DNA of 64,000 nucleotides from Escherichia coli (lineage in GTDB: Bacteria > Pseudomonadota > Gammaproteobacteria > Enterobacterales > Enterobacteriaceae): assembly GCF_003790525.1 (NCBI RefSeq), contig NZ_CP033635.1; one strand, given 5' to 3'. Below are positions 6,203-56,009 of this stretch, in pieces. Each line of letters begins with the position of its first letter. Within the stretch, counting starts at the first letter, position 1. Position numbers and translations under genes: made by a program. The notes beneath the pieces were generated by a model. The model had not been told where the DNA came from, did not search any database, and saw nothing but the letters and a program-made list of their open reading frames with translations.

Positions 6203-7936
6203 AAAGTGGCTCTTCCTCAACCTAGGTGAAGATTTTCATGCCAGTGGACTCATTACCCTCCGCCTAAGTAGTTCAAGTCCGGCTCGACCATACATCTGGC
6301 GTATCAGCACCTTCAGGCGATTTACATGACCTTCGACAACACCAGTACTCCAGCGACTGCTGATTGCCTCACATATAGCCGCAGCATCAGCTTCCATCCC
6401 CGCAGCTACGCACCGAAGTTCTGCTGAGCCGCTTTCGTGGACCCGAGTGAACCAGCTGCTTAGCTGTGATTTATTTTAGGTTTTCAGAATACGGTAGAAC
6501 TCGAGTACCAGTTGCTGCGCTATTTTCAACTCCGGTTCTTTTTCACACATCAGACTAATAAATCGGAAAGCATAATTTTCTCCACCCCTGATTATTCTCC
6601 AGGGCATCAACCAGCGGCTTACCCGGGACACTGAAGGAAGTCTTGCGGCAGTAGTAACCGGTGGGATCCAGCCTTTATGCCATTTGGCAACAGCATCCCT
6701 GACGATGGTTTCACTGCCTGTAACCCCCCTGGCCACCATTTCCCGCCATATCCGGCCGGAGTTATAATTACCACATTCTCGTTGCTCTTTTAACCACTCC
6801 CTCCATGGGTCCAGAAGCCCTCGCTTTGGAGGCCTGGTTGACATTTCAGGGAATGTTCCTGAACCCACCCAGCGACTGACTGTCACTCGCGACAGGCCTG
6901 TAATACGGGATATTTCCCTGAAACTACATCCCTTGTTATGCAGGGCCATAACCTCTGTCCAACGCTGATGCCGTTTTTTGCGGATGTGCTGTTTAAGGCG
7001 TTCCAGACGACGGAGCGATGCTACAGGCACAGATATTTCTGGCTCAGGTGATTTCTTCAGTGATAACTCTCTGACAACAAGACGTATCAGAGGCATATGT
7101 CTGTACATCATTCGTTCAGGCTCATCACCAATATTTTTTAGCAGGTGCCATCGATCGGCCACCTGTCTGGCCTGAGGTGCACCTTCACGTGCTGCTGTCG
7201 CATAGACTCCACTGCGATCACGCGAGACAACCTGTATTTCCGGATATTTTCTGAACCAGGTCGCCAGCGTACGCTGATCACGGCCGGGAAGCAGGACGAG
7301 GGGACGGTGAGTATCAGGATTGACTATTAACATACCGCAGCAGTGGCCCCGATGCCACGCCCACTCATCAATACCGACATGAGGCGCGCCTGACTGTTTC
7401 GTCTCCGGGGTATTGATAAGCCTGCGAAGAAGAGTATCAGCACTGCAACGGAGACCCACTGCCGTTGCAGCCCGTTTTCCAGCCTCACCTCCAGCTATTA
7501 ATCCCAGTTGACATTGTTAATTTTGTAACGCCTGTGAAGACTGCTGGTGTGAACTGGCGAAGGGAGCAAGCGACTCGGCAAAAATTTTACGTGAACAAGC
7601 CGGGTTACGGCAGTACCAGTGGCGGACGGAAAATACAAGCCATAGCGTCTGCCCTGAGCAGGGTAGATGCTGTATCCGGCGCCGACGACAACTATGAACA
7701 GAGTCGCTACGCTTAAAGCATTCAGGACATTGTGCTGTTTTGCGTTTTCCGTGGAGATGGAGGGTTATACCGTCAGAGCTAATAATTTGTCGACTGCATC
7801 GCCATCCGCAAGGTAACTGTAGAAGTGTCTTAAGAGAGTGCATTGCGTTGCCCATAACTTAAAACAGCTTAGATCCTTGTTCGCCAGAAAGTTTCATCCA
7901 TTTTCTTCCACCCAGGTTGCGGAAGAACCACTTTTC
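6203..7936 (-). mobile_element. ISL3-family insertion sequence (~1.73 kb) with ~30-bp imperfect terminal inverted repeats
   Basis: Left end aaaagtggctcttcctcaacctaggtg versus reverse complement of right end aaaagtggttcttccgcaacctgggtg (3 mismatches); internal ISL3-type transposase. Confidence 0.6.
6215..7855 (-). pseudogene. ISL3-family transposase, disrupted by at least two frameshifts
   Basis: Zn-finger N-terminus (7855-7517), DDE core GIDEWAWHRGH...SRDRSGVYATAAREGAPQARQVADRWHLLKN (7459-6476), and C-terminal STGVVEGHVNRLKVLIRQMYGRAGLELL in a third frame (about 6300-6215). Confidence 0.6.
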
Positions 7937-8138: not shown

Positions 8139-8546
8139 TCAGTTCCTATCCTTCCAGTTGCCCTCCTGCCCCCCCTCCCTGCTGTATACCCCGGTACCAC
8201 AACTCGGGCAGCACTTTTCCCCCTCATAATTTTCGTCACACATCACACAAAACCACTTTCTCACCTTCACCGTATAATCCGGAACCGTCATACCCTGCAG
8301 ATGCAAACGACGGGCCTCTTTCTCTGCCGGGTCAAGCCAGGTGCATCGCAGCAGGATTTTCTCAGCGACAGTCATCTGGTCATGTTCAAACCACGGTGGT
8401 TGTCCGTCATTGCCCCGCTGAAGTGTTAACGGGCATCCACAGGACACACAGCACAAAACGTCCTGGCGGTTGTGCTTCGCTGCTTCTTTCGCCGTAACAA
8501 AATGGCCTTTGCTGTCATTCGCCATATAACAGTTCAGAATTCGCAT
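8139..8546 (-). CDS. Cys-rich zinc-ribbon protein, hypothetical (paralog of upstream gene)
   Basis: CxxC pairs and a PWFEH motif shared with the adjacent gene; aggagg RBS just upstream of the ATG at 8546; start uncertain. Confidence 0.45.
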   Translation of the reverse strand: MRILNCYMANDSKGHFVTAKEAAKHNRQDVLCCVSCGCPLTLQRGNDGQPPWFEHDQMTVAEKILLRCTWLDPAEKEARRLHLQGMTVPDYTVKVRKWFCVMCDENYEGEKCCPSCGTGVYSREGGQEGNWKDRN

Positions 8547-8941
8547 ATTTCCTCCTGAGTTGTCCGGGGAATACTGAATCCTCCGGTCTGGCAGTGTGTG
8601 CAGTACCGCTCCCCATAATAATCGTGGTGACATTGTCTGCAGTGCCAGCTGGCTTTACGCACCACGGGTAAGGCATCCGGTACGAATTGCTGCAGACGTT
8701 TAATCAACTGTATTTCTCTGCGCTCCGGCCTGACATAAGGGCACTGTTGACCGTGCTCTGTCAGCCTGTCGTCAGTGTGTTCAAACCAGGGAAGTTCAGT
8801 GTCGTATTGCGGATGGTATCTGAGTGCACTGCCACACAAGTGGCAGGTGTAGTTAGCATAAGGTGCGGCCTGTGCAGTACGGGCGCCCGTCAGACGTCCG
8901 TTGCCATCAAGAGCGATAAAGGATTTTGCGTACATAGTCAT
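8534..8941 (-). CDS. Cys-rich zinc-ribbon protein, hypothetical
   Basis: 135-aa ORF with CHLCG, CRQCH, CTHCQ pairs and a PWFEH motif. Confidence 0.5.
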   Translation of the reverse strand: MTMYAKSFIALDGNGRLTGARTAQAAPYANYTCHLCGSALRYHPQYDTELPWFEHTDDRLTEHGQQCPYVRPERREIQLIKRLQQFVPDALPVVRKASWHCRQCHHDYYGERYCTHCQTGGFSIPRTTQEEICEF

Positions 8942-9194: not shown

Positions 9195-9764
9195 TCAACT
9201 CCGGCTACAGCCAAAATTGCGCTCACCGGTGCAGTGAGCTTTGGTATGTTCCTTCGCCAGATAGTCAGCACGTTCCAGCACCTGCTGAAAGCCAGTGTCA
9301 TCATCGCGTTCCAGCCACACCGCCGGCCAGGCCGGAAAATGCACCAGCGTGGCATGGCACCCGACATCCACTCCCAGGGCACTGCACCACGCCTGTTTAA
9401 TCATCCCGGCCAGTGATCCCGGAGCACGGTAATCACCGGCACGACACCAGGTATCCCGGTTAACCAGCAGCATCAGGTGATAGTGTTTTTTACCTTTGCA
9501 CTCCCCAAACTCCCGGGCCCAGACGTAATGCAGGGTTGTGGGATGCACGCGTTTACCTTCCCGATGCTTACGTTTCTGGTAAGCGTCGATTCGGGCTTTC
9601 AGGGCATTGATGAAGCGGGATATCACAGCTGCGTCCGTTGCTGCCGGTACATCCGGGAAACGCAGGTCAACCCGCAATGCCGTCAGGCGGGGATGAACAT
9701 TCAGTGCGTGCCGCACCGTCTCACGAATACGTTGCTGCCAGAAGGGGTTGTATTTGTAGGTCAT
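9195..9764 (-). CDS. YfjJ/YagK-family (inovirus Gp2-like) prophage protein
   Basis: N-terminus MTYKYNPFWQQRIRETV... recalled as the YfjJ/YagK family of CP4-type prophages; ATG at 9764 preceded by ggag; an upstream GTG at 9800 is an alternative start. Confidence 0.6.
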   Translation of the reverse strand: MTYKYNPFWQQRIRETVRHALNVHPRLTALRVDLRFPDVPAATDAAVISRFINALKARIDAYQKRKHREGKRVHPTTLHYVWAREFGECKGKKHYHLMLLVNRDTWCRAGDYRAPGSLAGMIKQAWCSALGVDVGCHATLVHFPAWPAVWLERDDDTGFQQVLERADYLAKEHTKAHCTGERNFGCSRS

Positions 9765-9963
9765 GGTTAAATCTCCGTATGGTTCATACGGAATAGCCAC
9801 GTCGTAAAAAATGCGCAGAGTCCCTGAAGTGACCTCCGGCAGGACACTGTCTCAGGCACTCTGTGATAACCCGAACGGTCGTCTCCGGACTGACGGTTGA
9901 ATTTTCAGCGTTGTTTTTTTAATGTAAAAAACCGGTTACGGGTAAGGCTGTGAGGAGGGAGTG

Positions 9964-10164
9964 ATGGTGATACGCAAAAAGAAGTGCAGGGACTGTGGAA
10001 ACGCGATTACTCATAATACAGTGTGTTGCCCGTATTGTGGTTCTGTCGACCCCTTCGGCTATTACCGGAATACAGACCGTATCGTTACCATACTGCTGGC
10101 ACTGATTATTGTGGTCCTGCTGACTACTGTCAGCGTCAGTGTGTATATACTGTGTAGCTGGTGA
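9964..10164 (+). CDS. Small zinc-ribbon protein with C-terminal transmembrane helix
   Basis: CRDCG...CPYCG zinc ribbon followed by hydrophobic IVTILLALIIVVLLTTVSVSVYIL; strong SD gaggaggga immediately upstream. Confidence 0.4.
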   Translation: MVIRKKKCRDCGNAITHNTVCCPYCGSVDPFGYYRNTDRIVTILLALIIVVLLTTVSVSVYILCSW

Positions 10165-11117
10165 GATAACGGTTCATGTATCCCCTGAGCTGACAGTGTA
10201 CCGGGTATATTAAGCGTAACCGACAGGTTCTCCTTCATACCATATTAAATTTTTCCAGGTATTGCCGCTGCCTTATTTCGTCCCATACAGGAAAACTCGT
10301 CTGGGTTTCTGACAAATACGCGAAACTCACAGCCCCTCAATATCAACCACACGCTGTAAGCCGGTAATACCTGAAAATCAGCCTATTACCGCCCGCGCCT
10401 CCGTTACCGAACGCTCAGGTGACCAGACTGAAGCCCAGCACGCACTCGTAAAATTTGCGGTCAGTTCCGTCAGTCAGTGGGCAACCGCAGAGTTACGGGC
10501 TTCCAGGTCCACAGGAGTGAGTCTATAACGCGTGTGGGAAATCATTTTTTCTGGCGTTGACAGAACGCCTTACGGGCTGCTACTTACCCGGTGTCCCGCA
10601 ATACAGCCTTAGTGTTCCGTTATCGGGGATCCGGACGCACCGCAACAACCGGGGAAGTATTTCTGGTTAGAGCTGTGTCAAGAGGGATTTCTCAGCCCCT
10701 CACTCACCGGCTCAGTCTCAGGGCAGAAGCATTAATACACTCAGTTCATGTCTTATACAGGAATGGGCATAGGGGGAGCTGGCGTGTCACTGCTGATTTT
10801 ACGCATCAGCGTTCATGTATCTGCACTCTGATACAGAATGCTTCACAGCGCTCTGTTACCGGAGAGATTTACTCTCTTAGGTTATTCTGGCAAATCCTTT
10901 ACGTTACTCTCTGATGACTTCTTATATTTATAATACCAATCAGACAACCTTATCCCATCGGTGATATCAGTCTCCTGCTCGCCAGGAACGGGCTGACTCA
11001 CTGTAACCACCTCCGAAAACAACTCTGCAATTATCAGAACGCCTGCTTCTCTCCCTGTCCTCACGAAAACTATCCCCTCTTTATCGCGCGTGCGTGCGGA
11101 AGCATCTTTTCGCAACA

Positions 11118-11130
11118 CCCCCCCCCCCCC
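11118..11130. repeat. Homopolymeric C13 tract
   Basis: 13 consecutive C residues, about 165 bp upstream of the alpA-like start. Confidence 0.9.
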
Positions 11131-11294
11131 GGGATTCCGCTACGGCTCTGCCATCGCAATCCCCCCGTTTATCTCCGGACAGCCACATTCCCGATTATTT
11201 TTTACGTTTCTCCCCGGTTGTTATGCCGGTGAAGGTGGCGCGCTGTTTTCATGACCACACCGGCTGGTTTAACAACATCCGGAGGAACATTCTC

Positions 11295-11501
11295 ATGGCT
11301 ACCCCAGTTTCGCTGATGGATGACCAGATGGTCGACATGGCGTTTATCACTCAACTGACCGGCCTAACCGATAAGTGGTTTGACAAACTCATCAAAGATG
11401 GGGGCTTTCCTGCGCCCATCAAAATGGGGCGCAGCTCCCGCTGGCTGAAAAGTGAAGTGGAAGCCTGGCTGCAGGCGCGTATTGCACAGTCCCGTCCGTA
11501 A
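11295..11501 (+). CDS. alpA: AlpA-family prophage transcriptional regulator
   Basis: 69-aa product MATPVSLMDDQMVDMAFITQLTGLTDKWFDKLIKDGGFPAPIKMGRSSRWLKSEVEAWL matches the AlpA/Phage_AlpA HTH family; ggagg RBS 8 nt upstream. Confidence 0.7.
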   Translation: MATPVSLMDDQMVDMAFITQLTGLTDKWFDKLIKDGGFPAPIKMGRSSRWLKSEVEAWLQARIAQSRP

Positions 11502-11579: not shown

Positions 11580-12197
11580 GTGAGGAATATGAAAATGAAA
11601 CAACAGTATCAGACCCGTTACGAGCTGCTCCATGAAAACTACCAGAAATGGCTGACCGGCTTCACCCGGCACGCCGTATCATGGGGCGTGTGTCATCCGA
11701 ATATCTACTATTTCCATAATCTGACGCCCGGGTGGGTGTCATTCAATGGCGAAAAACCGGAGATTGCCATCGTTCCCCAGAGTCTGCACCGGCTGATTTA
11801 TGGTCCGGACAAACGGAGCTCCCCGTCCCTGGATGATGATCTGGTGGTGAATTTATGCACCAGCGAACACCTGCTGGTTCATCATCCGATGCTGGAAGGG
11901 ATCCTGCTGTCTGAATGTGAGCGCCTGAAGCAACATTCTCTGGCAAACAAACTGATCAGCCTCTTCCGTCAGTTTGGCGGCACGGAGTTACGTCTCAAAC
12001 TGGTCTGGCTCTGCTGGCTTGACTTAATGACCGGAAACAGCCTTGACGACTGGACGAAAAACCTGAAACACAAATCAGAAAAAGATCTGGAGCAATGGAT
12101 CATTGCACGTCAGGGTCAGAGTGAACCACTGACAAATCTGATGGATCAGTACGTGCTTATGGCATACCGTACATCGGTTGATGCCGCTCACAGTTGA
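11580..12197 (+). CDS. Hypothetical prophage protein
   Basis: 205-aa ORF 78 bp downstream of the alpA-like gene, same strand; no family recognised; start ambiguous among several Met codons. Confidence 0.5.
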   Translation: MRNMKMKQQYQTRYELLHENYQKWLTGFTRHAVSWGVCHPNIYYFHNLTPGWVSFNGEKPEIAIVPQSLHRLIYGPDKRSSPSLDDDLVVNLCTSEHLLVHHPMLEGILLSECERLKQHSLANKLISLFRQFGGTELRLKLVWLCWLDLMTGNSLDDWTKNLKHKSEKDLEQWIIARQGQSEPLTNLMDQYVLMAYRTSVDAAHS

Positions 12198-12739: not shown

Positions 12740-13591
12740 TTAAACACGAGGCATATAGGTCTGATTCCGATATTCAATTGGAGTCAGACTTTTTAATTTC
12801 AGGCTAATTCTTCTGCTGTTGTAGTATTCAATATATTCCGTAACAGCATCCTTCAGTTCGCTTATATTACTGAACTCATCAAGATAAAAACACTCCGACT
12901 TTAAGGTTCCAAAGAAACACTCCACCACAGCATTATCCAGACAATTGCCTTTTCTGGACATGCTTTGTTTAATACCATGTTCTTTAAGAATATTTTGATA
13001 TTTTCTCATACGATACTGCCATCCCTGGTCAGAGTGCAGAACAGGATGCTCGTGAGGATTAAGCTTTTTGAATGCCTGATCGAGCATATTCTCAACCATG
13101 TTCATCACTGGTCTTTCCGAAAGGCTGTAAGAAATAACTTCGTTGTTGAAGAGATCTATTACTGGAGACAAATACAGCTTGCGCCCATTGACTGCAAATT
13201 CAGTAACATCGGTAACCCACTTCTCGTTTGGCCGCGTAGCCTTGAAATCTCTTTGGAGAACATTAGGGGCGGTTTGCCCTACCTCTCCTCTGTAAGAGCG
13301 GTATCGCTTGACCTTAATCGCTGCTTTAAGTGAGAGGGTTCCCATCAGGCGCTGAACAGCTTTATGGTTAATCTGTTTCCCTTCTCGATGAAGAGACAGC
13401 GTTACCCTACGGTATCCGTATCGGCCTCTATTCTCGTGATAAATCTCACCAATACGCTTTTTAACGTCCGCATACTTGTCAGGCTTGCTGAGAGCCTTTA
13501 GATGGTAATAAAACGTACTGCGCGGTATCTCCGCAGCCCTGAGAAGCTCATCAAGAGGATAAAACTGCCTTAGCTCGTTGAGTACTTTCAC
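12740..13591 (-). CDS. insK: IS150 transposase OrfB (InsK)
   Basis: 283-aa IS3-family DDE transposase; overlaps insJ by 4 bp as expected for the -1 frameshift fusion. Confidence 0.9.
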
Positions 13592-14109
13592 TTTTTCGTG
13601 GGATGAGCTAAGGCTTTCAGCTTTTTTAGATACATAAGCCGCGTTTCAAGAAATCGAACTTGCCTTTCAAGATCCTCAATACGTCGGTCTTTTGACAGCT
13701 CCAATGCTGATGCCGCTTTTTCTGGATCAACTGATATTGCAATGTTTCTTTTGGTGCCAATCTTGAGCGCGCGTAAACCAGCTTCTCCGCGCTCTTCATA
13801 AACCTTCAGCCACCTGGCTACAGAACCACTACCAGCAAGCATAAAGTGAGCAGCAGCCTGATTAAGGGACATGTGCTGCTCGATCACAGCTTTCACGACC
13901 TTAATACGCAACTCTGGATCAGCACTAACACCTTTAGGTTTGGGAATTAAACCTTTTTCTCCATGTTTTTCATAGAGGGCAACCCATGTCCTGACCTGGG
14001 TTCGGGGGACACCAAAACGTGCCGAGATGATCCTGTAACCATCATCAGTAGTGAAGTAGTGATTCACGACTTCAAGGCGCTTTTCAAAAGGGTATTTTGG
14101 CTTTGACAT
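13588..14109 (-). CDS. insJ: IS150 OrfA (InsJ)
   Basis: 173-aa product MSKPKYPFEKRLEVVNHYFTTDDGYRIISARFGVPRTQVRTWVALYEKHG... matches InsJ of IS150 as recalled. Confidence 0.9.
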   Translation of the reverse strand: MSKPKYPFEKRLEVVNHYFTTDDGYRIISARFGVPRTQVRTWVALYEKHGEKGLIPKPKGVSADPELRIKVVKAVIEQHMSLNQAAAHFMLAGSGSVARWLKVYEERGEAGLRALKIGTKRNIAISVDPEKAASALELSKDRRIEDLERQVRFLETRLMYLKKLKALAHPTKK

Positions 14110-14439
14110 ATCAGGGGCTATTCCATTTCATCGTCCAACAAAATGGGTGCAGTACATTCTCTGTGGAAACAGGGGCGCGCATTAGCTTCTCAACCAGAGA
14201 GTGTCACAAAGACAAATATTGCTGAAAATCGCATTCATCGTTCAGGCGTGAATGCCCGGAGACAAAAGCCGCTGTCCACACAGTCCCCCTCTGACCTGAA
14301 CAAAAAGCATACACACAACAGGCTCACCTGACCCCGAAAAACCATAACTTCAGCAATACCAGTGACACCAGCACGTTACCTCAGTGCCACATCTTCAGAC
14401 CGCGATCAATCTGAAATGTGACTATCGGGGCAATATCCC

Positions 14440-17271: not shown

Positions 17272-18144
17272 ATGAATCCGTCTGATGCCATTGAGGCAAT
17301 TGAAAAACCGCTCTCCTCCCTGCCTTACTCACTTTCCCGTCACATCCTGGAACATCTGCGCAAACTCACCAGTCACGAACCCGTGCCTGGCATTATGGGT
17401 AAAAGCGGGGCCGGTAAATCCTCACTCTGTAATGCGCTGTTTCAGGGGGAGATCACCCCGGTCAGTGATGTTCACGCCGGCACCCGGGAAGTGCAGCGCT
17501 TCCGTCTGAATGGCCATGGTCACAGCATGGTTATCACTGACCTGCCCGGGGTGGGCGAGAGCCGGGACAGGGATGCAGAGTATGAAGCCCTGTACCGTGA
17601 CATTCTGCCCGAACTGGACCTGGTACTGTGGCTGATTAAAGCCGATGACCGTGCCCTGTCTGTGGATGAGTATTTCTGGCGACACATCCTGCACCGGGGA
17701 CATCAGCGGGTACTGTTTGTGGTGATGCAGGCCGATAAAACGGAGCCCTGCCATGAATGGGATATGGCCGGTATTCAGCCTTCTCCCGCACAGGCACAGA
17801 ACATTCGCGAAAAAACGGAGGCGGTATTCCGTCTGTTCCGGCCCGTACATCGGGTTGTTGCCGTATCGGCCCGCACCGGCTGGGAACTGGATACGCTGGT
17901 CAGTGCGCTCATGACAGCACTTCCCGACCATGCCGCCAGTCCCCTGATGACCCGCCTGCAGGACGAGCTGCGCACGGAATCTGTCCGCGCTCAGGCCCGT
18001 GAACAGTTTACCGGTGCGGTGGACCGGATATTTGACACGGCGGAGAGCGCCTGTATTGCCTCTGTTGCACGCACGGTTCTGCGTGCCGTCCGTGACTCGG
18101 TGGTCTCTGTTGCCCGCGCGGTATGGAACTGGATTTTCTTCTGA
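17272..18144 (+). CDS. YeeP/YfjP/YkfA-family prophage GTPase, apparently intact
   Basis: P-loop GKSGAGKSSLCNALF and G3 DLPGVGES; family recalled from CP4-44/CP4-57/CP4-6; start set at the ATG giving MNPSDAIE (ORF extends upstream to a GTG). Confidence 0.8.
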   Translation: MNPSDAIEAIEKPLSSLPYSLSRHILEHLRKLTSHEPVPGIMGKSGAGKSSLCNALFQGEITPVSDVHAGTREVQRFRLNGHGHSMVITDLPGVGESRDRDAEYEALYRDILPELDLVLWLIKADDRALSVDEYFWRHILHRGHQRVLFVVMQADKTEPCHEWDMAGIQPSPAQAQNIREKTEAVFRLFRPVHRVVAVSARTGWELDTLVSALMTALPDHAASPLMTRLQDELRTESVRAQAREQFTGAVDRIFDTAESACIASVARTVLRAVRDSVVSVARAVWNWIFF

Positions 18145-18261
18145 ACCCGGTGGTGATGTACCAGGCTGTTGTTACAGATTTTTAACTCCATGAAAACACT
18201 ATGCAAACGCAGCCATACCCGGGTTGTCCCCTTGCGTTGTGTTTCTCAAGTTAATAGAATG

Positions 18262-18361: not shown

Positions 18362-20758
18362 ATGCACGAAAAGAACATCGCCCTGCTTTGTGATGAAGCC
18401 GACCGACTTTTGCAACTGAACATTAATCTGCTCCGGCAAATGGTTGAGGAGCCAGATGTGTTATCTGACAGTAAGAACGAAAACAGACTGCTTTTTGATA
18501 AACAGAAAGCACTGAAAAGAATTGAGGAGCTGGAGGGCGAACAAATCAAAACCGCCCGCAGGGAGATGGTGCTGGCTGTTGTCGGCACGATGAAAGCAGG
18601 CAAATCAACCACCATCAACGCCATTGTGGGGCAGGAAATTCTGCCTAACCGTAACCGCCCCATGACCTCTGTACCGACGCTCATCCGCCACGTTCCCGGA
18701 AAAACTGAGCCGGTTCTCCATCTGGAACATATTCAGCCTGTCCGCAATTTATTAATCACACTGCAGGAAAAACTCGCCACCCCGGCAGGACAGCAGGTCG
18801 CACAGACCCTGCAGCAAACCGGGGATACCCGCGAACTGCTGGATATTCTGACGGATGATGGCTGGCTCAAAAATGAATACCACGGGGAGGAGGAAATCTT
18901 TACCGGACTGGCATCGTTAAACGATCTGGTTCGTCTTGCTGCGGCAATGGGGACTGAATTTCCTTTTGATGAATACGCAGAAGTGCAGAAACTGCCGGTG
19001 ATCGACGTGGAATTCAGCCATCTGGTGGGGATGGATGCATGCCAGGGAACACTCACACTGCTGGATACCCCCGGCCCTAATGAGGCCGGACAACCGCAGA
19101 TGGAAGTGATGATGCGGGATCAACTGCAGAAAGCCTCTGCGGTTCTGGCTGTGATGGATTACACCCAGATGAACTCAAAAGCGGATGAAGACGTCCGTAA
19201 AGAGCTTAATGCCATTGCTGACGTATCAGCCGGCCGCCTGTTTGTACTGGTCAATAAATTTGATGAGAAAGACCGCAATGGCGATGGGGCAGATGCCGTA
19301 CGCCAGAAAGTTCCGGCAATGCTGAACAGCGATGTGCTGCCCGCCTCCCGCGTTTATCCCGGATCCTCACGCCAGGCATACCTGGCTAACCGTGCGCTTC
19401 ATGAGTTACGGAAAAACGGAACCCTTCCTGTTGATGAAGCCTGGGTCGATGATTTTATCAGAGGTGCCTTCGGTTGCATGAAAAAAGAATACGTCTGTAA
19501 AGACAGTGAACTGGCAACTGAAGGGGCGACAGACCTGTGGGAAGGCTCACTTATCGATCAACTGATAACGGAAGTCATACAGAGCTCACATTCCAGAGCT
19601 GCGGCACTGGCGGTTGACTCTGCCGCCGCAAAACTGATGCAGAATGCAGAAAATATCAGTGAATACCTGTTGTTACGCCATCAGGGGCTACAGCAAAGCA
19701 TTCAGTCACTGCAGTCGCATATCACCAGCCTGCTTGCGGATATCCGGGAAATCGCGGACTGTCAGGAGCAGATGACCACTGATGTCAGAATGGCCATGGA
19801 GGAGATCGATACTAAAACCCGGGAATTACTGACGGGGGTCTGCACCTCACTGGAAGAGGAGCTGAATGACTATTTCAGAAGCGGTAAACGCAAAGAACAG
19901 CAAATGCTGGAGGAAGAAGACGCAGAACAACGAAGGTCTCAGTCCGGATTATGGGGGAAAATTTCTCAATGGTCCGGTATCAACAACCAGGGCCGGGAGG
20001 ATTACAGGAAACGAGATTTTGCCCCGGACAGCCCCGAAATAAAATTCAGTGATCGCAGGGAAGCCCTTGAACTGATGACGCAAATCGAATCGACCGTGAC
20101 CAGCCTGCACCGTGAGGCTGAAGCACAGTTCCGGCCTGAGCTGGAGAAAATCGTCAGCGGGATTGAAACAGGTTTTCGTGGCACGGCCCTGTACGCCACA
20201 GAAAACATTGCCGGTCGCATCAATGCCCGCCTGGAGGATGAGGGCTTTACCGTAAAAATCAGTTTTCCGGCAGTCAGCCAGTTACAGACCCGGCTCGCGG
20301 TAAAAATAAATCTGAGTGCGCTTATGGAGGAAAGAACGGAGACCGTCACCCGTCGCCGTCGGCAGAGTGGCGTATGGGGAACCGTTTGTCGATGGTTTGG
20401 CACCAGTGACCTGGGCTGGGAAAACTATGACGAGGATGTGAGTCGCAGCGTGATCAATATCAACAAGGTCAGAGAGGAAGTTATGTCACTGACCCGGGCA
20501 TATTTCGGGGAGCTGCAGGCATCCATTGAGCAGGATATTAACCAGCCCGTCCGCCAGGAAATCGATGCCTTTTTCTGCGCATTCAGGGAGAAAGTTGAAC
20601 AACTGCGTAACACGCTGATTCAGAGCTCTGAAGATCATAAACGCGATCAGCAGGCGCAGGAACGGCTTACCGGGCGACTTCAGGCATTAAATGAAAGGGT
20701 TCCTGAGCTCATTACTGACAGTAAGGCGCTGAGGGAAGAGCTGGAGACAATGCTGTGA
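18362..20758 (+). CDS. Bacterial dynamin-like GTPase, CrfC/YjdA-like
   Basis: 798 aa; G1 GTMKAGKST, G3 DTPGPNE, G4 NKFD; N-terminal block REMVLAVVGTMKAGKSTTINAIVGQEILPNRNRPMT matches E. coli CrfC as recalled; long helical C-terminal stalk; RBS aggaagg. Confidence 0.9.
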   Translation: MHEKNIALLCDEADRLLQLNINLLRQMVEEPDVLSDSKNENRLLFDKQKALKRIEELEGEQIKTARREMVLAVVGTMKAGKSTTINAIVGQEILPNRNRPMTSVPTLIRHVPGKTEPVLHLEHIQPVRNLLITLQEKLATPAGQQVAQTLQQTGDTRELLDILTDDGWLKNEYHGEEEIFTGLASLNDLVRLAAAMGTEFPFDEYAEVQKLPVIDVEFSHLVGMDACQGTLTLLDTPGPNEAGQPQMEVMMRDQLQKASAVLAVMDYTQMNSKADEDVRKELNAIADVSAGRLFVLVNKFDEKDRNGDGADAVRQKVPAMLNSDVLPASRVYPGSSRQAYLANRALHELRKNGTLPVDEAWVDDFIRGAFGCMKKEYVCKDSELATEGATDLWEGSLIDQLITEVIQSSHSRAAALAVDSAAAKLMQNAENISEYLLLRHQGLQQSIQSLQSHITSLLADIREIADCQEQMTTDVRMAMEEIDTKTRELLTGVCTSLEEELNDYFRSGKRKEQQMLEEEDAEQRRSQSGLWGKISQWSGINNQGREDYRKRDFAPDSPEIKFSDRREALELMTQIESTVTSLHREAEAQFRPELEKIVSGIETGFRGTALYATENIAGRINARLEDEGFTVKISFPAVSQLQTRLAVKINLSALMEERTETVTRRRRQSGVWGTVCRWFGTSDLGWENYDEDVSRSVININKVREEVMSLTRAYFGELQASIEQDINQPVRQEIDAFFCAFREKVEQLRNTLIQSSEDHKRDQQAQERLTGRLQALNERVPELITDSKALREELETML

Positions 20759-21660
20759 CTTCACCATTTATTCAACAAATTGCTGATAACCGGGTATGTC
20801 AGGTACTCACCTGTCTTCCTGAAAAATTTGTGGTTGATTTCGCAAACGGAATCGATGTTGCACAGGAGCATATCCGCACGGCCGGAGAGCGCACGTTCTT
20901 CCGGCGTTTAAAAGAGGGGCTGACCGGCGAAGGCGCTGCACGGCAGAATGCCATCAATGCGTCGCTTGCACAGGGCGTTGAGGCGTCCCTGCGCTGGCTG
21001 ACGGAGATGACAACGTCACTTGCCACCACAAACTACGCGATTACCCGGGTAAACGACAGGGTCAGTTCACTGGTCAGTGATACAGCCAGGCTGGCGCATT
21101 ATTCCGCAGATACGCGGGAGCAGTTACTCACCCTGGCCGATCAGGTTCACCATAAACTGAATCATCTTGAAGAAAAACTCCACCGTGTTGACCAGGTTCA
21201 GCGGGCGCAGTTACATCTTGAGCAGATATTCTCATGGTGGAGCGCCGGGCGATATGCGTCATTTTCCCCTGCCGGACGTTGTTATGTGGCACTTGAAGAG
21301 CTTCGCTGGGGCGCGTTTGGTGATGTGATACGTCAGAGCGAAACAGGCCAGGTTAACCAGCTACTGGATATTCTCAGACATAAAGCATTAACGCAGATGG
21401 CACAGGAGAGTGGCGGTAGTGCAACCGTGCGTCTGAACACTCTGGACTGGCTTGGTGGTCAGGGCCGGGAGCAGGCAGATAACGAGTGGCATGACGCGAT
21501 TAACTGGCTGGGAGACTGGTGCAGTGAAGAGCAGCATCCGGTGATCTGGTCAACCACGCAGGCTGCAGAACACTTACCGGTTCGCATGCCTCGCCTCTGC
21601 TCTGCAGAACGCCTCTCTGAAAGTATGGTCGATGAAATATTTCAGAAGGGGGCTGCATGA
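20755..21660 (+). CDS. Dynamin partner protein (YjcZ-like, by synteny with crfC-yjcZ)
   Basis: 301-aa ORF; GTG start overlaps the dynamin stop (GTGA); mostly helical; family assignment rests on position, not recalled sequence. Confidence 0.7.
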   Translation: MTSPFIQQIADNRVCQVLTCLPEKFVVDFANGIDVAQEHIRTAGERTFFRRLKEGLTGEGAARQNAINASLAQGVEASLRWLTEMTTSLATTNYAITRVNDRVSSLVSDTARLAHYSADTREQLLTLADQVHHKLNHLEEKLHRVDQVQRAQLHLEQIFSWWSAGRYASFSPAGRCYVALEELRWGAFGDVIRQSETGQVNQLLDILRHKALTQMAQESGGSATVRLNTLDWLGGQGREQADNEWHDAINWLGDWCSEEQHPVIWSTTQAAEHLPVRMPRLCSAERLSESMVDEIFQKGAA

Positions 21661-22727
21661 GTACAGAAATGAAAACGGGGCTGGTGCTGTCCGGTGGCGG
21701 GGCGGTGGGCGCTTATCAGGCGGGAGTGGTTAAGGCACTGGCAGAGTGTGGTACACAGATCAGCATGGTTTCAGGGGCCAGCATTGGCGCATTCAATGGT
21801 GCCATTATCGCGGCCTCTACCGATCTGTCAGAAGCTGCCGTACGCCTGGAGGCGCTCTGGGATCATCTGGGGAATAATCAGGTGCTGTCGGTAAACAGAT
21901 TGGTTTACTTTTCATTGCTGAAAAAATTGTTCCAGGCAATGAACCTCTGCCAGATCCCCGGACGTGCAGGAGCACTGCTTACGACGCTTCTTCGCCATAT
22001 ATCGACAATCAACGGGTTTGACAATCTGATGGCTCAGCCGTTGTTGTCAGATGAGCCCCTGACAGCGCTGATGGATCATTATCTTGATACTGATGCTCTG
22101 GCAGACGGGCTACCGCTGTATGTGTCGCTGTACCCCACAGAAGGGGGCATGCAGGATATTATTGACTGCATTCGTGCTGAACTGGGTGTCGGAACCACGA
22201 AAAACGCCGTTTTTCAGCATATCCAGAGCCTGCCCCGCGGACAGCAGAAAGAGGCTCTGCTTGCGTCAGCCGCGCTGCCCCTGCTGTTCCGTCCCCGTGA
22301 GGTTCAGGGGACAATGTTCGGTGATGGTGGTATGGGAGGATGGCGAAATATGCAGGGAAATACCCCTGTGACGCCTCTGGTCGATGCCGGATGCAATATG
22401 GTGATTGTGACGCATCTGAGTGACGGTTCTTTATGGGATCGCCAGGCTTTTCCGGACACCACAATCCTTGAGATCCGTCCCCGGAAAAGGCTGAAATATG
22501 CAGGTGATGGTGGCAACAGCGGCGGTCTGCTCAGTTTTACATCGGCACATACCGACGCCTGGCGTCAGCAGGGCTATGAAGACACGATGCTGGCGATGGA
22601 GCATATCCGGAAACCGCTGGCAGCACGTCAGGCACTGACCCGGTCAGAGGCGGTATTGCAGAAAAGCCTGGATATAACGGAAGAGGCAGATTTGGCACTG
22701 AGAAACGCGATGGCCCGGATTAAATAA
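21657..22727 (+). CDS. Patatin-like phospholipase
   Basis: 356 aa; Gly-rich oxyanion SGGGAVGAYQAG, lipase GxSxG as GASIG, catalytic Asp in FGDGGM; ATG overlaps the upstream stop (ATGA). Confidence 0.85.
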   Translation: MSTEMKTGLVLSGGGAVGAYQAGVVKALAECGTQISMVSGASIGAFNGAIIAASTDLSEAAVRLEALWDHLGNNQVLSVNRLVYFSLLKKLFQAMNLCQIPGRAGALLTTLLRHISTINGFDNLMAQPLLSDEPLTALMDHYLDTDALADGLPLYVSLYPTEGGMQDIIDCIRAELGVGTTKNAVFQHIQSLPRGQQKEALLASAALPLLFRPREVQGTMFGDGGMGGWRNMQGNTPVTPLVDAGCNMVIVTHLSDGSLWDRQAFPDTTILEIRPRKRLKYAGDGGNSGGLLSFTSAHTDAWRQQGYEDTMLAMEHIRKPLAARQALTRSEAVLQKSLDITEEADLALRNAMARIK

Positions 22728-22743
22728 AGACGCCCCAAAGAAA

Positions 22744-36373: not shown

Positions 36374-36639
36374 GGTCATTCTCCTTTACGGTGATAACCG
36401 TCGCGTAAGCAAAAAATTGCCCCATTTTTTTGGATTCCTCAGCGACAACAACTGTCGATTTTTAGTAAATATCTATCCGGTACGAAGCCCGGCCTCTTGG
36501 TATGAATGATTGGTTTGAAGCAAAAAATAACCGACGCTGATGAAACGTCGGTTTTTAGTCATTTTTTGACAGCGGCGCATTGTGCCTAAATGGGGGGGAA
36601 ATGACAAGAGAATGAGAGGCTTGTCATAATAATTTTTCT

Positions 36640-38865: not shown

Positions 38866-38916
38866 ATGACACGCGTTCAATTTAAACACCACCATCATCA
38901 CCATCATCCTGACTAG
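38866..38916 (+). CDS. hisL: his operon leader peptide
   Basis: MTRVQFKHHHHHHHPD with seven consecutive His codons. Confidence 0.9.
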   Translation: MTRVQFKHHHHHHHPD

Positions 38917-38979
38917 TCTTTCAGGCGATGTGTGCTGGAAGACATTCAGATCTTCCAGTGGTGCATGAACGCATGAGAA

Positions 38980-39016
38980 AGCCCCCGGAAGATCACCTTC
39001 CGGGGGCTTTTTTATT
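38980..39016 (+). terminator. his attenuator terminator
   Basis: agcccccggaag-atcac-cttccgggggct hairpin followed by a T tract, between hisL and hisG. Confidence 0.8.
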
Positions 39017-55738: not shown

Positions 55739-55786
55739 ATAATAGGGGGGAGGGTATAGATACTACCCCGCAAGACGCAAAAAACA

Positions 55787-55797
55787 ACGCTACCGCC
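55787..55797 (-). promoter_or_regulatory. ops element (GGCGGTAGCGT) of the JUMPstart region, RfaH-dependent antitermination site
   Basis: Plus-strand acgctaccgcc is the reverse complement of GGCGGTAGCGT, 49 bp upstream of wzx on the transcribed strand. Confidence 0.7.
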
Positions 55798-56009
55798 CCT
55801 GGCTTAACAGCTACCAGTTCACTAACACAAACTTATAACATGGCAATCTTAATAAATTCGTCTCTAATAAAACAAGAGACCGTTTTCTAAATCACATGAA
55901 GCAAAAAATCACCATAAAAGATCTAAACATCATCTGATATTTTAAACATTAGCTTAGATAATCGGTTGACGACTTTCATATTACTATTTTCTCCCGCCTT
56001 TTATCTTCA

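Follow-up and report, generated by a model that had tools for sequence, protein, structure and literature searches.

The window analysed here is a stretch of 64,000 nucleotides from Escherichia coli (RefSeq assembly GCF_003790525.1, contig NZ_CP033635.1), and our subject within it is a small plus-strand gene at 9964..10164 whose putative product is a 66-residue zinc-ribbon membrane protein. The gene lies head to head with a leftward gene of the YagK/YfjJ type, and both belong to an island at the CP4-44 position. This island is an expanded CP4-44-type element, i.e., a cryptic P4-type integrative element beside the his operon, and the initial annotation of the locus was right to place the small gene in a prophage remnant. 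We describe below the gene and its predicted product, the selection acting on it, its distribution and its relatives, before turning to what the protein might do.

The plus strand at 9950-9969 reads gtGAGGAGGGagtgATGgtg. It holds a Shine-Dalgarno sequence, GAGGAGGG, at 9952..9959 (+), which we identified by direct reading and whose GAGG core is present in all six aligned subtypes. Two start codons follow it. The mechanically called open reading frame (ORF) begins at a GTG at 9961 and spans 9961..10164 (+), giving 67 residues. The coding sequence (CDS) called by PGAP begins at the ATG at 9964 and spans 9964..10164, giving 66 residues, with a TGA stop codon at 10162-10164. The GTG adjoins the Shine-Dalgarno sequence with no spacer at all, whereas the ATG lies 5 nt past its AGGAGG core. 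Because of this missing spacer, and because PGAP uses the ATG, the latter is the likelier start codon, and we number residues from it. The predicted product is then MVIRKKKCRDCGNAITHNTVCCPYCGSVDPFGYYRNTDRIVTILLALIIVVLLTTVSVSVYILCSW. The initial annotation had described a small zinc-ribbon membrane protein of 67 residues with a strong ribosome-binding site. The ORF, the Shine-Dalgarno sequence, the two CxxC pairs, and the C-terminal transmembrane (TM) segment are all there; the length it gave fits the mechanical ORF from the GTG but exceeds by one residue the protein made from the likelier start. The start region differs in the D-type copies (L008:4024-4221 and L007:4024-4220), which have ATC in place of the ATG and a weakened Shine-Dalgarno sequence (GCGAGGGAG). 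Translation of these copies would need the next codon, a GTG; PGAP sets their start at the ATC.

The predicted protein has three parts. The core of the first is a Cys4 zinc ribbon (9985..10038, residues 8-25) made of two cysteine pairs, C8-R-D-C11 and C22-P-Y-C25, the second of which forms a CPYCG knuckle. The four cysteines occupy invariant columns in the alignment of 12 family members and also in a set of 28 sequences that includes remote relatives; H17-N18-T19, which sits between the two knuckles, is invariant as well. The second part is a juxtamembrane motif, SVDPFGYYRNTDR (10042..10080, residues S27 to R39), near-invariant within the family, of which the DPFG-plus-basic portion is common to the remote relatives. 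The third is the TM anchor (10081..10149, residues 40-62), followed by the four-residue tail LCSW. Its maximal Kyte-Doolittle score over 19 residues is 2.99 (residues 40-58), and AlphaFold2 (AF2) predicts a helix at residues 33-65 with a per-residue confidence (pLDDT) above 90. The residues R35 and R39 flank the TM segment, and in all subtypes the N-terminal domain has a net charge of +2 to +5 and the C-terminal tail counts 2-4 residues. From these features and the model, the protein is predicted with good confidence to have a single C-terminal TM helix and to be tail-anchored with its N-terminus in the cytoplasm. When remote homologues were included in the alignment, the AF2 model reached a mean pLDDT of 82.9, with the same helix at 33-65 and two short ribbon strands at residues 5-7 and 14-16 (pLDDT 77-82). 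The predicted ribbon superposes locally on solved Cys4 ribbons with deviations of 1.3-1.8 Å over 23-28 residues, at Foldseek E-values of 0.57 or more, and a sequence search of the chains of the Protein Data Bank (PDB) returned generic ribbons only. The predicted ribbon is likely to bind zinc.

Short Cys4 ribbons of this kind are described by several Pfam models (Zn_Ribbon_1 PF13240, Zn_ribbon_3 PF13248, DZR PF12773, and zf-ChsH2 PF12172). They resemble the window protein in having CxxC knuckles about 10 residues apart, the second being CPxCG, and are often fused to TM segments in "zinc-ribbon domain-containing proteins", but they lack the HNT and SVDPFGYYRNTDR motifs of the family studied here. 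We also considered a zinc-binding anti-sigma factor (ZAS, i.e., zf-HC2 plus TM) and rejected this assignment: the spacing H17-x4-C22-x2-C25 is unlike the H-x3-C-x2-C of these proteins, zf-HC2 is absent among the Pfam matches at E<=1, and the neighbourhood contains no sigma factor gene.

We then studied the selection acting on the gene. At least five protein subtypes exist, and we fetched five divergent copies, aligned them with the window, and computed dN/dS by the method of Nei and Gojobori, taking codons 1-39 as the N-terminal domain. In this domain, dN/dS between intact subtypes is 0.10-0.19 (binomial P against neutrality 7e-4 to 8e-3), with for example 7 synonymous and 3 nonsynonymous changes between the window and the L008 copy and 10 and 7 between the L008 and L009 copies. 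The TM half has dN/dS values of 0.4-2.5 between distinct TM types. The identity of the DNA between subtypes is 75-91% in the N-terminal domain and 51-62% in the TM half, and it declines steadily from 5' to 3' across the ORF. Despite the divergence of about 40-50% in the TM half, an open frame of 64-66 codons is kept in all subtypes, each of which has a hydrophobic stretch of 23 residues with a Kyte-Doolittle maximum of 2.8-3.0 (5 of 5 subtypes). Past the stop codon, the similarity of the DNA between subtypes drops to about 30-40%, as for unrelated sequence. This is the signature expected, at the level of the sequence, of a cytoplasmic domain constrained in its residues and of a helix constrained in character only. 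The conservation is delimited by the ORF and of the coding type, which is more than chance would give. The initial annotation had made the case for the gene depend on conservation in related islands, and the gene is indeed conserved there with a coding signature. It is also intact in the window although the adjacent hha gene has decayed. We conclude that this is very probably a real, translated gene with a putative membrane-protein product.

The gene is far from rare. RefSeq annotates exactly this CDS as WP_001297900.1, a "hypothetical protein", in thousands of E. coli genomes, and the corresponding UniProt entry is A0A024L0K2 (A0A024L0K2_ECOLX); one source calls it a "predicted nucleic acid-binding Zn ribbon protein". 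These records have the same sequence and coordinates as the gene of the window and carry a name only, as we found neither a Pfam or NCBIfam family nor literature attached to them. The idea that annotation had missed the protein must thus be abandoned: it is an uncharacterised instance of the common architecture of a zinc ribbon plus a TM segment, outside curated families and already listed as a hypothetical protein. The identical protein is found on at least 1,000 contigs. The locus was detected by megablast in 3,050 of 5,426 complete E. coli genomes and by a more sensitive blastn search in 3,493 of them (i.e., carriage of 56-64%), with a median of 2 copies, up to 6, almost all chromosomal. 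The best matches are at least 99% identical in about 1,950 genome records, and the carriers include Nissle 1917 and IHE3034. K-12 has no homologue in CP4-57, CP4-6, or CP4-44 (tblastn and blastn), and ribosome profiling (Ribo-seq) surveys of K-12 are therefore uninformative on this gene. The absence from the K-12 CP4 elements probably explains the missing experimental record. The peptide is also absent from the supplements of a Ribo-seq paper on enterohaemorrhagic E. coli (EHEC), papers on YagK/YfjJ are uninformative on the small protein, and the literature on zinc-ribbon membrane proteins yielded nothing specific to it. As to spread beyond Enterobacteriaceae, no relative was detected among 100,044 species-representative genomes; plasmids are almost devoid of the E. 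coli island family itself, and phages lack it.

The small gene and the YagK-like gene are separated by a conserved divergent control region (9765..9951), which we examined by the alignment of subtypes, a promoter scan, and a search for repeats. It is 88-95% identical between subtypes, above the 75-91% of the coding N-terminal domain, except in a copy with a 24-nt deletion, where it is 76% identical. Immediately before the start codon of the YagK-like gene, it contains a perfect hairpin of 8 bp (9774-9781/9785-9792), and it also holds an inverted repeat of 12 nt (9816-9827/9852-9863) and, at 9930-9937, the palindrome AACCGGTT. This combination of conservation and repeats suggests dense regulatory sites or a structured 5' untranslated region (UTR). 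The promoter scan identified a minus-strand promoter-like site at 9928..9901, which points away from the small ORF, and another one inside the ORF (10133..10105), in sequence that is not conserved between subtypes; it did not find a plus-strand promoter for the small gene. An Rfam search of 9500-11400 gave no match at E<=1. No terminator was found near the small gene, and the predicted fold of the sequence downstream of it has nothing unusual. We dropped from consideration a hairpin at the 5' end, which spans the start codon (z = -3.4), as it is unsupported by the L008-type sequence.

Remote relatives of the protein are found in other mobile elements. A full HMMER scan of 1.84 billion representative sequences gave only 25 matches below E 1e-10, all of them E. 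coli-type variants. Below E ~1e-5, the same scan lists many proteins of 55-80 residues in which the cysteines are spaced alike and an S-x-DPFG motif precedes a basic stretch and one TM segment. A profile-profile comparison (hhalign) of the small family with these remote relatives gave a probability of 99.6%, in a comparison that is partly circular since the set of relatives was drawn from the matches of the same profile. Relatives with the ribbon-DPFG-basic-TM layout (59-78 residues; L010:6001-6219, L011:6001-6237, L020:6001-6228, L022:3002-3181, and L026:5001-5219) lie within regions for conjugative transfer and are encoded on the strand that does not carry the tra genes. Among the five relatives whose contigs are informative on their context, four have this location and the fifth is chromosomal; the contigs of P0117, P0127, and P0104 are too short for this. 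The four contexts are an F-type cluster, a Dot/I-type cluster, a region with SSB, AcaB, and SNF2, and a region with TraG, TrbI, and Topo III. A P0100-type ORF of 72 residues takes up the interval from traN to trbC, in the orientation opposite to the tra genes (e.g., L026:5001-5219 on NZ_CP039405.1, an IncFIB/FII plasmid). It is present on 125 PLSDB plasmids, of which 117 are conjugative, mostly IncF plasmids of E. coli and Shigella; for most of these records, the PLSDB gene table does not list it. Its identity with the window protein is 34% over 53 ungapped residues.

The remote conjugative relatives are thus like the window protein in length class (55-80 residues), cysteine spacing, S-x-DPFG motif, basic stretch followed by one TM segment, monocistronic arrangement, and carriage by mobile elements. 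They differ from it by the low identity (about 30-35%), by a longer C-terminal tail, and by their location in tra clusters instead of P4-type islands. Three phage families (PHROG 38187, 10292, and 14275) weakly match residues 6-58, with E-values from 1.5e-5 to 1.3e-3. They also have an N-terminal zinc ribbon followed by a TM segment; unlike the E. coli protein they extend over 136-178 positions, with an extra C-terminal domain, and the match covers their first ~50 positions. The Pfam family DUF2116 (PF09889, "probable treble clef", threshold 26.8 bits) does not match the window protein, and the remote relatives score 17.6-23.7 bits against it.

Taken as a whole, the explanation that we favour, with a confidence that stays a little short of even, is that of a genuine 66-residue tail-anchored protein of the inner membrane whose ribbon is its working surface. 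In this explanation, the gene would be transcribed divergently from the YagK/YfjJ-type gene across the highly conserved control region of about 200 bp. The positively charged cytoplasmic N-terminal domain would fold as the Cys4 ribbon of residues 8-25, followed by the juxtamembrane motif (27-39), the TM segment (40-62), and a periplasmic tail of 2-4 residues. Selection bears on the sequence of the ribbon and of the juxtamembrane motif but not on that of the helix, and the simplest reading is therefore a helix that anchors the protein and a cytoplasmic domain that serves as a binding module. The helix would thus be an anchor only, and the ribbon and the juxtamembrane motif would form the surface to which a cytoplasmic partner binds and by which this partner is kept or sequestered at the inner membrane. 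The candidate partner is a protein, or a nucleic acid of the regulation and replication module of the island or of an incoming element, and its tethering would modulate island regulation, replication, or transfer-related processes. We put forward this membrane-tethering adaptor mechanism tentatively, as a possibility with clearly less than an even chance. There may be a functional analogue in the Caulobacter protein ZitP, which reportedly is a protein-binding membrane adaptor whose Cys4 zinc finger, at the N-terminus and in the cytoplasm, is held at the membrane by a TM segment. ZitP is much larger than the window protein and has a periplasmic DUF3426 domain, and the analogy is one of function, with no claim of family membership.

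Several observations weigh against this interpretation. When AF2 was given the family-only alignment, it modelled the ribbon poorly (pLDDT <50), and there were no significant fold matches in the PDB or in a library of viral structures. The matches to Pfam zinc-ribbon models are all sub-threshold: the best, zf-ChsH2, scores 16.2 bits for a cut-off of 23.2, the others 13-16 bits for cut-offs of 27-29, and the best zinc-ribbon match in NCBIfam scores 16.4 bits for a cut-off of 32. Some copies are decaying, since that of L007 is frameshifted and that of L006 lacks the second knuckle, and the function must therefore be dispensable in some islands; the subtype copies of L005 and L006 show a dN/dS of 0.54. 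The fast evolution of the TM segment could reflect co-evolution with a membrane partner, or recombination, and the gradient of divergence across the aligned copies suggests a mosaic boundary inside the ORF. The candidate plus-strand promoter (TTGAAT at 9897-9902, a 17-nt spacer, and TAATGT at 9920-9925) is weak and was picked out by eye only. Finally, we found no mention of the accession or of the peptide in the literature.

The gradient of divergence matters for the view that the ORF is non-functional and merely hitch-hikes, its conservation resulting from the recent spread of the island and from overlap with the regulatory DNA of the YagK-like gene. The upstream intergenic DNA is indeed more conserved than the ORF, in which conservation falls steadily towards the 3' end, and the near-identical copies in ~1,950 genome records say little about selection. 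However, the substitutions between subtypes in the N-terminal domain are concentrated at synonymous sites, the four cysteines and the CPxCG knuckle are kept, and every subtype maintains its frame up to the end of the hydrophobic stretch in spite of the divergence of the DNA there, which makes hitch-hiking very unlikely. The second alternative concerns the helix. The protein could be a small membrane-damaging toxin (type I-like, a kil-type prophage protein, or an abortive-infection effector) that depolarises or permeabilises the inner membrane when expressed, and that would stabilise the island or kill infected cells. Most hydrophobic small proteins are toxic when overproduced. This one is small and hydrophobic, has a strong ribosome-binding site, and is encoded by a cryptic P4-type element that also carries cbtA and cbeA; its frameshifted or truncated variants are common in database clusters, as might be expected of a costly gene. 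Furthermore, a link to prophages is common among type I membrane toxins (review PMC12648545). Nevertheless, such a toxin would act through its TM helix, and it is there that the protein is conserved least, while the cytoplasmic ribbon is the most constrained. The Rfam search revealed no antisense or neighbouring RNA at 9500-11400 with E<=1, a search that a novel RNA may escape, and the antisense promoter-like site within the ORF is not conserved. Hok/Gef, Ldr, Ibs, and TisB are likewise small single-TM proteins of mobile elements, but the window protein differs from these type I toxins by its 66 residues with a predicted folded cytoplasmic domain of 39 residues containing the zinc ribbon, by a TM segment whose sequence is not conserved, and by the lack of a detected antisense RNA signal. 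The intact form dominates, given the exact sequence on at least 1,000 contigs and the records at 99% identity or more, and the small protein has no match in PADLOC-DB 2.0 at E<=0.1. The same review, from 2025, makes no mention of zinc for any characterised small membrane protein that it covers, which also speaks against a toxin. Given the low conservation of the helix relative to the rest of the protein and the failure to detect an antisense RNA, a membrane toxin is less likely than a tethering adaptor, and we regard it as improbable.

The contexts of the remote relatives suggest another alternative, in which the protein acts in the competition between mobile elements: a zinc ribbon sited at the membrane would hinder incoming DNA (through exclusion of conjugation, or of phage or satellite entry), or would aid the transfer or establishment of the element's own DNA. 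The same layout recurs in conjugative regions in four of the five informative contexts, with the hhalign probability and the 34% identity given above, the P0100-type ORF is carried between traN and trbC by plasmids that are mostly conjugative, and there are the weak PHROG matches to longer ribbon-TM phage proteins. Set against this, the relationship is a distant one and the choice of the sequences compared is in part circular. Moreover, hardly any plasmid and no phage carries the E. coli island family itself, the part of the island within the window has no type IV secretion system (T4SS), and PADLOC gave no match. We consider this alternative unlikely. A broader version of it unites the island protein with its relatives from the conjugative transfer regions of IncF, I-type, and P-type in one unrecognised family of membrane-tethered zinc-ribbon proteins, carried by mobile elements, that would share a role in DNA traffic at the inner membrane. 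Its members could control transfer or establishment, exclude competitors, or anchor a Rep- or relaxase-type protein. This unification is quite doubtful. The gene matters because it is present in over half of the complete E. coli genomes, often in multiple copies, and belongs to the constant backbone of CP4/P4-type islands, which carry adhesins, toxin-antitoxin pairs, and other accessory genes. If it has a role in island regulation, replication, or the competition between mobile elements, this would bear on the persistence of the islands. A worked example of a zinc-linked small membrane protein would also add a new mechanistic class.

The genes around the small gene have a stable organisation. 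We inspected 10 loci, and all of them share one gene order. They are those of the window, of Nissle 1917, of five more E. coli genomes, of two contigs with a Salmonella-type protein (one from an assembly that its source names Salmonella enterica), and of another assembly of unchecked species. The order consists of two leftward DUF7828 plus Zn_ribbon_11 genes, the leftward YagK/YfjJ-type gene, about 200 bp of intergenic DNA, and the rightward small gene, usually followed by hha/ymoA in leftward orientation and then by the genes of an AlpA-like regulator and of a hypothetical protein of 200 residues. In a few loci, insertion sequences (IS) cut or removed one DUF7828 copy. The small gene thus belongs to the backbone of the CP4-44/P4-type islands found in E. 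coli and, sporadically, in Salmonella.

Its constant neighbour, the YagK/YfjJ-family gene (9195..9764, minus strand; PF11726, E 1e-47), is Rep-like, with an HYH motif, and the family is also named "inovirus Gp2 family". The protein is 36-40% identical to YfjJ and YagK of K-12, and the gene occurs in 3,502-3,846 genomes, a count similar to that of the small gene. Beyond it, in the same conserved block, are the two tandem paralogous DUF7828 plus Zn_ribbon_11 genes (8534-8935 and 8139-8546, minus strand). These paralogues have 133 and 135 residues, overlap by 13 nt, are always linked to the YagK-like gene, and are weakly similar to the N-terminal domain of CoiA. On the other side of the small gene, the hha gene (Hha/YmoA family; 10420..10557, minus strand) is a pseudogene with an internal stop codon and a frameshift (tblastn), while other island subtypes have an intact hha at the corresponding position. 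The AlpA-like helix-turn-helix (HTH) regulator (11295-11501, plus strand) and the gene of the 200-aa hypothetical protein (11595-12197, plus strand) are conserved backbone genes. Among these neighbours (the YagK-like, the two DUF7828, the AlpA-like, and the 200-aa proteins), the search of PADLOC-DB 2.0 gave nothing stronger than E 5e-4.

An IS150 insertion (12741-14110, minus strand) and a degraded ISL3 transposase (6236-7855, minus strand) flank the conserved backbone block, and the island is therefore a mosaic, partly decayed. The first 25 kb of the window are 100% identical to many complete E. coli genomes. Farther along the island, a GTPase-family gene (17273-18145) precedes a group of plus-strand genes at 18363-22728 that comprises a dynamin-family gene, an RdcB-family gene, and a gene for a patatin-like phospholipase; this cargo module could be a defence or membrane-remodelling system. 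The island ends with yeeS, yeeT, cbeA, cbtA, and yeeW, past which lie tmaR, yeeA, sbmC, dacD, sbcB, the his operon, and the O-antigen cluster. Three Rfam matches in the window score above the gathering threshold, namely the small RNA (sRNA) STnc240 (36520-36594, minus strand), the His operon leader (38892-39015, plus strand), and JUMPstart (55786-55824, minus strand), and they fit this chromosomal flank of yee genes, his operon, and O-antigen cluster.

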